NCBI GenBank assembly: GCA_964016885.1
Contig: OZ024747.1
Coordinates: 19,964,001-20,028,000 of the forward strand
Source: Eledone cirrhosa
Lineage: Eukaryota
DNA length: 64,000 nucleotides
Reading direction: 5' to 3'
In this document: positions 1,788-61,305 of the stretch, in pieces
Numbering within the stretch: the first letter of the stretch is position 1
How the letters are laid out: every line of letters starts with the position of its first letter
Translations under genes and position numbers: made by a program
Notes under the pieces: model-generated
Databases searched by the model: none
What the model was told of the DNA's origin: nothing
The model's input: the letters and a program-made list of their open reading frames with translations, nothing else

Positions 1788-2009
1788 AATATGGTTTTAT
1801 AAATATAGTTTCCATTTATTTAATATTGTAAATATACTCCAAATATTTGTCGAGTGCTTTTATATCAGTTATAAATATTTACTAGTTGTAACCCAACAAT
1901 TTTAAATATAACTTTCCATATATATATATATATATATATATATAAACGATATATGAATATATACCAAATGAATAGCAAATGATATGTAGCATTAGCTCCA
2001 AACCAGGTG

Positions 2010-2158
2010 TTAAAGCATAGAGTTACCTCCCTGTATGATCTGAGTTCAAATCCCGCCGAGGTTAACTTTGTCTGTCATCCTTCCGGGGTCGATAGAATAA
2101 AGTACCAGTAATGCATTGGGTAATTGCTGGCCTTGTGCCAAAAGTAGAAACAATTACT
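2010..2158 (+). mobile_element. tRNA-derived SINE family A, 5'-truncated
   Basis: B-box-like GAGTTCAAATCCC, core catccttccggggtcgatagaataaagtacc, tail ggccttgtgccaaaagtagaaacaatta. Confidence 0.85.
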
Positions 2159-2204
2159 TACATATAGATTATTGAATTCTGTCGATCGATTGATTATTGA
2201 TTAG

Positions 2205-2475
2205 GCGTTACCCGCTGATGAAGCCACATGCGCCGACTATGCATTGTTGCATAATATATGCAGACAGAGGGTGCAGTATACCCTACTGCTGCATTAAGTG
2301 TGGCCGAACCTCGAGTCCAGGAACTACTATAGGCACCCGTTTTCGTGTGTTGTATTGAAGCGAATAACTATGTGTATACTCTGGGAATATATCCTACATT
2401 ACCTATTGAGTACGTTGAGATACAACCGGTACTAGCATTGATACCTATGCTGGGTCCGTCAACTACTTATTAATA
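2205..2475 (+). mobile_element. PLE terminal-repeat remnant with a degenerate hammerhead
   Basis: CTGATGA at 2215, stem II GCCACAT/GTGTGGC with a long insert, GAAC instead of GAAA, palindromic CTCGAG then TC. Downstream TACTC...GAGTAC motif, ending at (TA)n. Confidence 0.5.
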
Positions 2476-2487
2476 TATATATATATA

Positions 2488-3000
2488 CAGGGTGAGTGAA
2501 AAGTAACTCCCTATTGAATGCCGAAAGGTACATCATCATGAAATCTAGCCAATTATCAGTACTCGGGAGAATATTTAAGATTTGATTTTGCTATTGTTGT
2601 TCGTGAATGGTTGAATGCCCACTTCCTTGGAAGATGGACGTGACCATCGTGGTCCGCATGAGTGGCCAGCCAGAAGCCCTGACTTAACACCCTGTGACTT
2701 TTTCTTTGGGGTTGGTTAATGGAACAAGTCTACTCTAACAAACCAACGACTTTCTAAGAACTAACTTGAAGGGTGAATACGAAAGGTTATGTCTTCCATC
2801 CCACAAGAGTTCCTGGAGAAATAAGTTGAGGCGGTTCCCGGACTTCTTGAGAAGCTGGAGGCAAATGCTGGTGCCCATATTGAATTTTAAATAATCCTCC
2901 ATGCTATACGCCTTTTTCTTATATTCATTTCTTGTAAAAATTATAGTTAAAAAATGAATTATAAGGAATTATAAAATAGGGAGTTACTTTCCAATCACCT
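2488..3000 (+). mobile_element. Internally deleted Tc1/mariner-superfamily DNA transposon
   Basis: Imperfect terminal inverted repeats cagggtgagtgaaaagtaactccctatt and aatagggagttactttccaatcacct, preceded by TA. The internal remnant encodes WPARSPDLTPCDF, the transposase C-terminal catalytic motif. Confidence 0.85.
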
Positions 3001-3984
3001 CTCTCTCTCTCCCTCTCTCTCTCTCTCTCTCTCTCTCTCTCTCTCTCTCTCTATATATATATATATATATATATATATATATATATATATATACATATTT
3101 ATATGTGTGTGTGTGTGTGTATGTGTGAGAGAGTGTGTGTGAGTATGTGTGTGTATATGTGTGTGTATGTGTGTGTTTTTGTGTGTGTGTATACTAAAGA
3201 TAAGTAACAGGAAGAGAAAAAGGTGAAAAATAGTGAGCTGTTTTTGTTTAGTTTCTTTACAGGTAAATAAACATCTTCAGTGATGTTTTGAAAATAGAGT
3301 AAAAATTGAATCAAGGATAAGATAATGTTCAAAGAGAAATTATTGAGATGTACTTCCTACTTTCTACATCCTGCTTATTTTCAGACAATTTCACTTTGTG
3401 ACAATAGGAAGCCAAGTGTATCCGTATAACTGTGTTTTGAAAGTTACAATAAACTTCAAGCTACAAATCAATTGGCGTTATCGGAAATGACCAACTGGCA
3501 GGAAAGACAACTCTGTTATAATACAGAGAAAACGAATATCATTTGAAATAGCTCTTTATAACAGCTGAAAAAAAGTCTTGTTGGATTTCCCTGTCATCCC
3601 TAATTCTAATTCTGTATCTGTTTCTGTTCTAGAAACTCTTCATCTTGTTTATTTGAGCTAAATACAGTTATCCTTTGTTTTTGTGTAATATTGTTTGTTG
3701 CATGAGGAGGTTGTTTTAATGTTATTGACATTGTTGTTACTCTCGTTGGTTATGGGTGTTTTATTGTTATTGTTTGTATTTTTTATATTATTATTTATTT
3801 TTTCGTTTGATTTCCATTCTTCTTTATCTTCCGGTCGAGTGTCAACTAGAGATCTAAGACAAGTATATATTAGCTGGAGAGAAACATCCTGAGAAGGTGA
3901 GTGGCTGATGTCAGAACAATGTTTTGAATCTCATAGATTGCTGGTTCCCCTGAAATCTAGTGAAACATATTATTATTATTGACA

Positions 3985-4084
3985 CCCTGCGTCGTAGCAT
4001 AGAGTTACGACCTTTTACGTTCTGAGTGCAAATCCTGCCAAGGTTAGCTTTGAACTTTACGGGGTTGATAAAATAAAGTACCAG
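3985..4084 (+). mobile_element. SINE family A fragment
   Basis: gcatagagttacgacc...ctgagtgcaaatcctgccaaggtt...gataaaataaagtacc matches the other copies. Confidence 0.75.
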
Positions 4085-58654: not shown

Positions 58655-58858
58655 TATATAGGCACAATGCCAGCAATAGTGGGGTGGGTCGATTAAATCG
58701 ACCCCAGTTCGTGAATGGGTCATTTTTTTAATCGACCCCGTAATGATGAAAGGCAAAGTTAACCTCGGTGGGATTTGAACTCAGATCATAAAGGGCCGTA
58801 ACTCTATGCTGCAAAGCATGACATCCGACCCTCTACCGATACTGCTAATCCACCGCCC
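58655..58858 (-). mobile_element. SINE family A (longer variant)
   Basis: Reverse complement of the head and core, with an extra ggggtcgatttaatcgacc segment before the tail. Confidence 0.85.
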
Positions 58859-60326
58859 TAATACACACATAAAATGAGAGGACAGTATGCTCCAGCTGGT
58901 TAATAATTTCTCTAGTGTTCTATGATCTTAGATAAATTTTCAGCTCGGAACATCTTAAAGGAAAGCATAACTATAATAAAATCGTCCTTCCAAGTCTCCA
59001 TATGAGTGTGATAATTCAATATTCTTTAATATATATCTGCCAATATGATTGATTTCTAAATTAAGTAAAAGGCCAGCAAATTTTGGATGAATAAGAAATT
59101 TGATGAATAATGCTATGTACCTGACGGGTACATTATTTAATCGACCGTAGAAGGATGAATTGAAAAATGAACTCAAGCATAGAGTCAAAACAGATATCCT
59201 GAAGTCATTTTATTCGACACTCTATCGATCCTGCTAAACCACCACCTGCAAATGCCTAAGTTATTAGAACTACTGTAACGTAGAGTAATGAGTTTCTTTC
59301 TTGAATGTATTCAGAATAAATGTCCAAGTAGATATCTGGTATTAATATATGTAGTGTACACGGAAATCTCTATAAGAGTTAAACGGTAAGTATTTCTTCA
59401 AATATTCTTTACAACTGTTGAACAACAATCTCGATTTAATTAAATATTCATCATAGTTATTGCCCGTCATTTCTATAGGTGTTTTGTTGATGATGTTGTC
59501 ATTATTTTCCATTTACGTATGACATCGGAGATAAAGATGCAAAAAGAAAGTGTGATTGTACTGGGTAATGGTAATTTTGGTTTATAACTAATTTCCTATA
59601 TATTGCAAATCATAAAGGTGTTGCGTCGCCCCCCCCCCCCCTCTCTCTCTCTCTCTCTATATATATATATATATATATATATATGTGTGTGTGTGTGTGT
59701 GTGTGTGTGTGTGTCTGTGTGTGTGTGTGTGTGTGTGTGTGTGTGTGTGTGTGTGTGTGTGTGTGTGTGTGTGTGTGTGTCAGGGACTCCACATGGTCTA
59801 GTGTTATCTGAAAAGCCCTATCAACTATGATGCTATACACTAGAAAACACATATAAACCAAATCACTTAATATAATTATACTTATATACTCTTAGGTTAA
59901 ATCAAAACCCGAAAGGTCGAAAGAGTTATCGCAACGTATTCCGTCCGATGAGCTAACAAATATGCAAAATTAAATGATTTGATCTGGAATTTGATTTATT
60001 AGCTCCGAAAATATGAACAGAAAATGTGACCTGAATCAATTGGTGAACCAGATCAGTGAACCAGATCAAATAGCAGACAGAACTCAAGGTAAATATCACC
60101 TTATATGATAGAACTGCGTATATTTTTGATACGTATTTTACTTATGTCTCTTGAACAATTAGTCATGTTCTTTTTTCTCTGAGAATTAATTATCTCTTTG
60201 AGAGCGAAATGCAACTGATATCGTATATATATATACCGCAGTTCACTGTAATAATAATAATAGTATTAGCTCAAAGAAGAATAGAGAATTTCCATGAGGT
60301 TAGATGTGTAGTGTTCAGTGCTCGCA

Positions 60327-60401
60327 TTTGCTGACTGAGGATCCTGTGACCTGATACTTCACATAGAGGTGGTGAAACGAAGCGAGATTCGTATCAGCAA
60401 A
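60327..60401 (+). ncRNA. Type I hammerhead ribozyme with a full stem III
   Basis: tttgctga-CTGAGGA-stem II (tgtga/tcaca)-GAAA-cgaa gcgaga ttcg-TA-tcagcaaa. Confidence 0.7.
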
Positions 60402-60695
60402 ATATAGTTATAAGGTTTGTGATTTAAAACTCTAATCCAGAGATTTGATTCTGAATTGGTTTTTTTCTATTTAATTGGTAACCTGTAGATATTGTTCTCT
60501 ATACAGTAACGGTAAATCGCTTGTAATAATTCGTTACACACATCTCACTGTGTAACACACTTCTCTTTGTGTAATATATACTTGTATATATATATATATA
60601 TATATATATATATATATATATATATATATATATATATATATATATATATATATATATATATATATATATATATATATATATGTATATATATGTAT

Positions 60696-60906
60696 ATAGG
60701 AACGAGTAGGACCCCGACGGCTGAGCTCAAGCCATTTCGACGGCTAATTCTGGACTAGAATCTTTTAGTCCAGAATTAGCCGTCGAAACGGCTTCAGCTC
60801 AGCCGTCGTGGTCCTACTCGTTCCTATTACCCATTCTACTACCCTAAGTATTGAGTACTTTGGTGCGTTATGGTCCACCTGGTTCCTTACCACATTTCCT
60901 CCGTTA
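60696..60906 (+). mobile_element. Palindromic PLE insertion truncated inside a hammerhead
   Basis: Arms 60696-60757 and 60766-60827. Retains GAAA-cggct...agccg-TC. The tail is shared with 12941-13012. Confidence 0.75.
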
Positions 60907-60927
60907 TATATATATATATATATATAT

Positions 60928-61305
60928 ATATTAATTCAAAATATTAACAAAAATAGACATTTGTGTGATCAAGTATATTTTATTATACATATTTCAGATG
61001 TACTGAGCTATCTTCAACAGTACGTCCTCATCAGATAAAATAAGATGATGCATGACATACCCTGACATAGTAGATGTGAGGGTATGTCATGCATCATCTT
61101 ATTTTATCTGATGAGGACGTACTGTTGAAGATAGCTCAGTACCTCTGAAATATGTATAACAAAATACACTTGATCACACGAATGTCTATTTTTGTGAATA
61201 TTTTGAATTAATATTAATAACTCCGGAAAACCATATATTGAGTGCTTCCAATCTATTGTGAAACTCATTCTTTGATTTATTCATTGAACCCTTTTCAACC
61301 TTTAA
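60928..61305 (+). mobile_element. Palindromic PLE insertion in (AT)n
   Basis: Arms about 60928-61068 and 61074-61213. Tail has AACTCC...GAGTGC. Confidence 0.85.
61101..61165 (+). ncRNA. Type I hammerhead ribozyme (mirror copy at about 60977-61041)
   Basis: attttat-CTGATGA-ggacgtactg...cagtacctct-GAAA-tatgta-TA-acaaaat. The mirror copy has a perfect stem I. Confidence 0.8.

Follow-up and report, generated by a model that had tools for sequence, protein, structure and literature searches.

Twin bulged hairpins of the 5' untranslated region and their relation to the copy ends of Hydra-type Penelope-like elements

Introduction

Among reverse transcriptases (RTs), those of Penelope-like elements (PLEs) stand closest to telomerase. 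PLE insertions have inverted arms and a one-sided tail, and how these arise is an open puzzle. The present analysis starts from a stretch of 64,000 nucleotides (nt) of the Eledone cirrhosa genome (assembly GCA_964016885.1, contig OZ024747.1, positions 19,964,001 to 20,028,000, forward strand), which is called the window throughout, and from a short motif that recurs there in the tails of fold-back repeats. Hydra-type PLEs have a pair of conserved bulged hairpins in their 5' untranslated region (UTR), and this motif of about 20 nt corresponds to the first one. Being present twice, in a base-exact relation to both ends of the copies, the hairpin makes the puzzle directly testable. The motif sets the outer end of the inverted arm, likely a start of cDNA synthesis, and not the fold-back point.

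The closest described systems are the PLEs with C-terminal endonuclease that form the Hydra clade (Craig et al. 2021, PMC8557442; all papers are cited here from the accessible parts of their text). Common to that clade and to the elements studied here are the RWK and DKT motifs, the CxCx5C linker and the CxxC and CxH motifs of the protein, as well as a hammerhead ribozyme in the pseudo-long terminal repeat (pLTR), insertion into (TA)n, an inverted 5'-truncated copy and a one-sided tail. Hydra-clade tails measure 30-40 nt and the units tend to stay below 3 kb, whereas the tails found here are mostly 55-170 nt long and the units reach about 3.6 kb by tandem spacing, or 4.3 kb by the hammerhead spacing at locus L222, with long 3' UTRs. 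The words "hairpin", "bulge" and "stem-loop" do not occur in the accessible main text of that paper. Inspected by eye, the published consensus of Hydra-1_Ajap contains both hairpins and begins 2 nt ahead of hairpin 1, those of Hydra-2_Amil and Hydra-2_Ajap end with hairpin 1, Hydra-1_Obim and Hydra-1_Crog have deviant hairpin forms, and no hairpin is visible in the Hydra-1_Amil consensus.

Internal initiation of reverse transcription has been described for PAc, the Poseidon element of Anolis (Frangieh et al. 2024, PMC11167929). In vitro mapping placed one RT start site at either end of the PAc tail; both strands of an AT-rich target are cut and extended, a dimer is predicted, sequence 3' of the starts is required, and hammerhead cleavage is dispensable in vitro. 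PAc belongs to another clade, and its start sites lie inside the open reading frame (ORF), in contrast to the 5' UTR hairpins considered here. The accessible text names one "AC-rich stem loop" and no twin motif, and the GCTC/GAGC hairpin is not among the 96 PAc RNA letters of Fig. S1B. By eye, two GGC..GCC segments with a spacing of 41 nt can be recognized among these letters; they are possibly a Poseidon analogue of the twin hairpins.

Upstream minimal type I hammerheads and non-autonomous tandem units are shared with PLE pLTRs and non-LTR retrozymes, and circular RNA templates have been proposed for such hammerhead systems (PMC4209133, PMC7229834, bioRxiv 10.64898/2026.07.22.740005); a downstream hairpin pair is not described in the accessible parts of these sources. 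Unlike the hammerhead-bearing retrozymes, the most abundant non-coding family in our material keeps the hairpins without a canonical hammerhead core.

Twin hairpins in full-length elements

A search with the broken endonuclease fragment at window position 40978 led to intact ORFs of about 714 amino acids (aa), and homologs of the Hydra-type ORF number 1328 at E<=1e-20. At locus L223, a single ORF of about 710 aa encodes an RT with YRDD core followed by a C-terminal GIY-YIG-type endonuclease with its motifs. In a 32-row protein alignment (A1), RW[KR] and DK[TS] are present in 32/32 rows, the CxCx4-7C linker likewise in all 32, and CxxC..CxH in 31; RW[KR] and DK[TS] were also found in 17/19 and 18/19 metagenome ORFs, respectively, and in two other families of the E. 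cirrhosa genome. Hammerheads in the pLTR and insertion into (TA)n are present as well. Judged by their protein motifs, the full-length elements fit the Hydra clade. The Neptune clade was rejected, as its CX2-5CxxC linker pattern occurs in 1/32 rows of A1 and DKT, in place of its DKG, in 32/32, and so was the Naiad clade (N-terminal endonuclease, DKA, no canonical hammerhead), as the endonuclease is C-terminal here and hammerheads are present.

In the 5' UTR of the full-length elements, the hammerhead is followed by hairpin 1, then by the usual tail end and hairpin 2, with the ATG after these. Hairpin 2, which the preliminary description of the window had missed, thus lies just past the tail end, and it is not copied into most insertions. 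Twin hairpins occur in four families of the E. cirrhosa genome; hairpin 2 was predicted from two of them and then found in both further families tested. Among 78 metagenome loci, 54 have at least 150 nt ahead of the ORF and represent 28 families. In 19 of these, two motifs lie within the 150 nt before the ATG (18 of the 21 families in which the hammerhead core pattern is found), while six families have one and three have none; the controls gave two motifs in 6/2800 shuffles and in 0/280 ORF windows. Within the E. cirrhosa genome, one family has a variant hammerhead core and one has none detectable by the search pattern. The core of family L234-L252, which has many intact ORFs, reads CAGAAGA instead of CUGANGA; its distance to the ATG is about 190 nt. 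In some metagenome families (loci L284 and L319), the hammerhead is directly followed by an additional, third RCTC..GAGT hairpin, which is very short and located about 142 nt ahead of the ATG.

In the metagenome families, 15-51 nt separate the end of hairpin 2 from the ATG, and 42-78 nt lie between the hammerhead core and the start of hairpin 1. Such positions would also suit protein-bound operators with a mainly regulatory task, either in ORF translation or in hammerhead switching; copy ends would then lie nearby only as a consequence of where the protein is bound. Hammerhead cleavage of PAc indeed needs protein (PMC11167929). As the principal function we regard this as quite improbable: the most abundant family, which lacks an ORF of more than 8 codons, keeps both hairpins and the corresponding ends, and the ends are base-exact in young families. 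Translational or ribozyme control may be a second role alongside RT positioning.

This family, the most frequent among the fold-backs with 27 of the 136 one-sided repeats, consists of a non-coding unit of 257 nt in tandem (L032:9513-10000; window 60696-60905) that retains both hairpins and contains an 8-codon remnant resembling the start of the ORF; no canonical hammerhead core was found in it by the search pattern.

A covarying bulged hairpin

The hairpin reads RCTC, an upper stem, a variable loop, a 2-nt bulge on the 3' side, and GAGY. In the tails, the lower stem has 4 bp (ACTC/GAGT, GCTC/GAGC, GTTC/GAAC or GTTT/AAAC) and the upper stem about 3 bp, while the loop ranges from 3 to about 70 nt and in some cases contains nested stems. 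The preliminary description had defined the motif by its ACTC and GAGT letters and had supposed that these pair. The pairing is borne out as the lower stem, and there is indeed a conserved cis-structure; the conserved unit, however, is the bulged hairpin with its A-U/G-C variants and not the letters. Its literal form, WACTC-N8-90-GAGTRC, is too loose as a definition, as it was found 162 times in a sample of 1.664 Mb (160 genome stretches of 10 kb plus the window) and 94-102 times in three shuffles, a 1.6-fold excess, whereas the structural form was found 115 times versus 3-8 times in shuffled sequence. Of these 115 matches, 85 have (AT)n 25-130 nt downstream (random positions: 8.4%), in agreement with the described location before a terminal (AT)n. 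If the density of 115 per 1.66 Mb holds across the 3.0-Gb genome, which is rich in (AT)n, about 200,000 matches would be expected.

Fold-back repeats were also gathered without use of the motif. From 255 inverted repeats, 136 one-sided ones remained after filtering, which formed 64 clusters, and the 41 clusters with a 30-250 nt tail leading into (AT)n were tested. In 14 of them (expected: 0.79), the structural form begins at -4 to +12 of the arm end, 13 times at +2 to +6. Several fold-backs have fixed tails of 24-61 nt in which the hairpin is lacking or partial (window 38673-39106 and 54915-55164; clusters 3, 5, 16, 24 and 33); for these families, a different signal or membership in a different PLE clade is possible.

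In the metagenome families, a control with the bulge on the 5' side gave 9/28 and did not discriminate, and therefore a pairing test was carried out in which the hairpin halves were picked by sequence anchors only. With the 2-nt 3' bulge, the first upper-stem pair is formed in 43/43 instances (26 C-G, 16 U-A, 1 G-U), while a 1- or 3-nt bulge permits it in 1/44 or 3/43. In hairpin 1, the second pair is formed in 19/21 and the third in 17/20 instances (permutation p < 0.001). In an alignment of 23 sequences (A2), 96.9% of the cells are paired, four of seven pairs have changed on both sides, the covariation score was matched by 0/500 shuffles, and RNAalifold recovers the same structure.

It could be argued that the shared letters reflect chance or neutral inheritance from a common repeat ancestor. 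The literal motif is only 1.6-fold enriched, two of the ten sites cited in the preliminary description are indeed chance pairings, and related sequences can inflate covariation counts. The excess of the structural form, compensatory changes across families in which protein identity to the query is just about 40-50%, and the duplication of the hairpin with a spacing fixed to two separate ends largely refute this explanation, which we find hardly credible. Coding constraint was rejected as a cause, as the motif lies upstream of the ATG and the cited spans share no frame.

Rfam returned only sub-threshold matches for the window, mostly miRNA models on hairpins and microsatellites, and 0 matches for 17 metagenome loci. 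A description of the hairpin motif was not found in a literature search whose coverage excluded most subscription papers and supplementary figure images; the accessible parts of PMC3846280, PMC5737381 and PMC13282606 contain nothing on it. The hairpin is therefore likely an undescribed cis-element of a known retroelement clade.

The ends of the copies

Copies end about 2-8 nt 5' of hairpin 1 (site 1) or of hairpin 2 (site 2). In 30 copies of the family of window hairpin 20387, all 13 inverted arms end 4-8 nt ahead of hairpin 1, whereas their inner ends vary. The motif keeps a fixed distance to the hammerhead and to the outer end of the short arm, as had been surmised, while the further suggestion that it sets the inversion endpoint, or fold-back point, did not hold, as the inversion centre differs between copies.

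In five families, microsatellite-abutting ends lie at -14 to +3 of a site in 69/73, 83/87, 42/44, 23/34 and 3/4 copies, counts that include loci chosen by search. Eleven other ends in one family correspond for the most part to a diverged hammerhead-like copy within the 3' UTR of that family; at L223, a second, diverged hammerhead-like copy lies in the long 3' UTR at 5034-5120. In ten copies of a very young family, 14/14 ends lie at exactly -3, seven at hairpin 1 and seven at hairpin 2. On the metagenome contigs, 12 of 30 alignment ends are 2-8 nt ahead of a hairpin; 17 of the remaining ends come from between-locus matches and are, by eye, points of divergence, and among same-contig ends seven of eight fit and one does not.

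The two sites are used together. Among 69 head-to-head pairs, both ends could be classed in 48, and all 48 combine site 1 with site 2; the same is true of 4/4 full-length insertions, in which the long copy may be on either strand. Every one of the 52 two-armed insertions in which both ends are classed combines the two sites, so that the tail is as long as the hairpin spacing. A seeming site 1 plus site 1 case, L227, turned out to be two insertions that are 79% alike. TATA or ATAT at -10 to -2 precedes hairpin 1 in 13/19 families and hairpin 2 in 7/18 (background 8%).

The fixed spacing and the one-of-each rule would fit paired nicks equally well. In that case the hairpins would act as DNA, the GIY-YIG endonuclease would nick the donor copy or a cDNA intermediate 2-8 nt upstream, and the ends would be cut sites. 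According to work cited in PMC11167929, the endonuclease depended on the Drosophila virilis tail to recognize plasmid DNA, and Craig et al. (PMC8557442) give endonuclease-mediated resolution as the origin of the tail. Several observations make this unlikely: loops of 3 to about 70 nt with nested stems would be difficult to accommodate in a duplex site, UA tracts lie ahead of both sites, the genomic ends of PAc coincide with mapped RT starts (PMC11167929), and the fold is favoured on the sense strand, with G-U 8 versus A-C 2.

Two hairpins, two probable starts of reverse transcription

By analogy with PAc, it is probable that the twin hairpins are protein-binding RNA sites that place two RT starts, one for each nicked strand of (TA)n. 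The element protein, perhaps as two subunits in analogy to the predicted Poseidon dimer, would bind both hairpins, and its endonuclease would nick both (TA)n strands. Each freed 3' end could then pair with the UA tract before one hairpin and be extended. The cDNA started at site 2 would carry hairpin 1 and the spacer, i.e. the tail, while the cDNA started at site 1 would not, and joining of the two at variable 5'-truncation points would generate the head-to-head palindrome. Hairpin 2 would be copied only in tandem read-through. From such a scheme the tail would follow, and likewise the one-of-each rule and insertions that lack hairpin 2. Long copies that end at site 2 would need a template with hairpin 2 past the 3' UTR, as might come from a donor in tandem, a circular RNA or a jump between templates.

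Structured RNA beside the RT start that is bound by the element's or virus's own protein is familiar from the R2 3' UTR, the 3' stem-loops of LINEs and SINEs (long and short interspersed nuclear elements) and hepadnavirus epsilon. Those signals are single and serve one start each, whereas here two internal copies match two starts; the comparison is one of function, and no homology is claimed. RT recognition or priming had already been proposed in the preliminary description, and this part is also our best reading; for the template switching at the motif that it proposed in addition, no evidence was found.

Several observations weigh against this explanation. It rests on PAc, an element of another clade without this sequence, and PAc starts at sites that are non-homologous to the target (PMC11167929), unlike the UA pairing proposed here. 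In 21 of the 69 head-to-head pairs, one end is unclassed or read through. Five of ten long copies end at site 2, so that an unproven tandem, circular or jumped template is needed; tandem copies do exist in the L113 family. For the 20387 family, site 2 was set as the tail end, and its hairpin 2 was never seen. In 27 of the 41 fold-back clusters there is no boundary match; some of these are decayed, displaced or non-PLE, and several have clear tails. Bulges of 0, 1, 3 and 4 nt gave 5, 1, 1 and 6 matches in the same 41 clusters. Hairpin 2 often has one upper pair, its second pair being formed in 10/21 instances. When sites were folded in isolation, 11/12 were not unusually stable (z > -1.7) and several minimum-energy folds departed from the model; thermodynamic folding as sole identifier does not pick out the hairpin. 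The stability of hairpins in isolation is marginal, and it is therefore covariation that carries the case. The sense-strand bias is small and compatible with single-stranded DNA. Finally, window sites outside the 5432 family are tied to Hydra ORFs by their architecture only.

A more general scheme is conceivable, though we hold it to be rather doubtful: PLE replication could be twin priming from one RNA, in which two protein-binding hairpins load two RT active sites that both copy this RNA, one onto each nicked strand, the spacing programs the tail, long copies arise from circular or tandem RNA, since hairpin 2 must lie 3' of the start, and the rule extends across clades with differing hairpin sequences. 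If so, the hairpin pair would be a portable signal for double-strand RNA-templated insertion.

The hairpin pair would define the minimal cis signal for mobilising non-coding passengers, the motif can serve as a tool for delimiting elements and recognizing ORF-less Hydra-clade copies, and young, intact families that are suited to biochemistry have been identified. The L113 family (L331-L350) is very young, with 100% identity across the first 130 aa in 52 of the 150 copies listed; it has many 785-codon open frames as well as tandem and head-to-head copies, and the first pair of its hairpins is mismatched.

Hairpins and element remnants in the window

The window contains many fold-back repeats and minimal hammerhead cores. 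Its hairpins and associated features are:

1731-1771, plus strand: minimal type I hammerhead core, 64 nt ahead of hairpin 1
1836-1857, plus: hairpin 1, ACTC/GAGT with CAA/TTG upper stem and TC bulge; family of 13212
2215-2309, plus: hammerhead-like core matching the relaxed pattern, stem II long, 68 nt ahead of the hairpin
2378-2413, plus: hairpin 1, TGGG/CCTA upper stem, TT bulge
4618-4636, plus: short hairpin 1 with 2-bp upper stem, kept in four relatives; the copy continues without (AT)n
5432-5454, plus: hairpin 1, GCTC/GAGC variant, 3 nt past the arm end (arms 5347-5428)
10964-11520, plus: broken Hydra-type endonuclease fragment with CxCx5C linker
12143-12214, minus: hairpin 1 of the 12220-12838 fold-back, 5 nt past the arm end, with long loop and irregular bulge
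13212-13233, minus: hairpin 1, 2 nt past the arm end and 63 nt past hammerhead core 13337-13297
13232-13613: head-to-head inverted pLTR arms with a hammerhead core in each
14860-14944, plus: hairpin 1 with 67-nt loop, L143/L174 family
19963-20382: head-to-head arms with hammerhead cores 20027-20063 (minus) and 20282-20318 (plus)
20383-20481, plus: tail of about 99 nt between site 1, where the arm ends, and (AT)n at site 2
20387-20428, plus: hairpin 1, 4 nt past the arm end
40978-41638, plus: broken Hydra-type endonuclease fragment, the query used to find the full-length elements
42309-42335, plus: hairpin 1, CAGT/ACTG with TA bulge, about 7 nt past the arm end; inverted-arm hammerhead 42114-42157 (minus)
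54633-54662, plus: hairpin 1, GCTC/GAGC variant, 5 nt past the end of arms 54068-54627
60833-60858, plus: hairpin 1, ATTC/GAGT including a U-G pair, 5 nt past arms 60696-60827; abundant non-coding family
60928-61214: head-to-head arms with hammerhead cores 60992-61034 (minus) and 61108-61150 (plus)
61220-61245, plus: hairpin 1 with decayed upper stem, 5 nt past the arm end

The letter strings are present at all ten positions cited in the preliminary description, and eight are genuine sites. Complete bulged hairpins are found at 1836-1857, 2378-2413, 13233-13212, 20387-20428 and 42309-42335; sites 1835 and 13212 represent one family and hence are not independent instances. At 61220-61245 the upper stem has decayed in the window copy and is intact in the relatives L054 and L069. 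The site at 4618-4636 has no hammerhead core within 200 nt, and the true 5' strand of the site given as 60836 is the ATTC at 60833, which is ACTC in the family. The two remaining sites were rejected. At 7362-7428, the ACTC belongs to the antisense arm of another family and the GAGTGC half lies beyond the junction, so that two elements are joined, and 12375-12468 is inside an inverted arm of the element whose real hairpin is 12214-12143. This one and the hairpins at 5432, 14860 and 54633 had not been listed.

An upstream hammerhead, which had been described as usual, is confirmed at five cited sites by a core 63-69 nt before the motif, but not at all sites; at 42308 an intact core is on the inverted arm only. 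The arms named by their starts at 19963, 42062, 60928 and 13236 do stop just before the motif, by 4, about 7, 5 and 2 nt, respectively, the end of the 42062 arm being ambiguous relative to the AT repeat.

A direct tie of a window stub to a Hydra ORF exists in the 5432 family, in which the hairpin clusters with L135, the tail of which matches the 5' UTR of a full-length Hydra-type ORF. Pfam gave no match on the broken endonuclease fragments of the window. An association of the 40978 fragment with the 42308 tail is conceivable, that tail lying downstream at 1 of 29 other loci.

Further observations

At L223, a microsatellite-rich stretch (about 1600-2100) with a polypyrimidine tract and CAG at its end precedes the hammerhead and is possibly a retained intron. 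A 276-codon frame of the window at 22849-23679 (minus) has no Pfam match and looks similar to the nuclease region at the C-terminus of a retroelement protein. ORFs of non-LTR retrotransposons are represented by fragments at 33140-36412, 44102-47212, 25469-28039 and 49410-51614, and Pfam RVT_1 was confirmed at 33796-35238 and 49410-51614.

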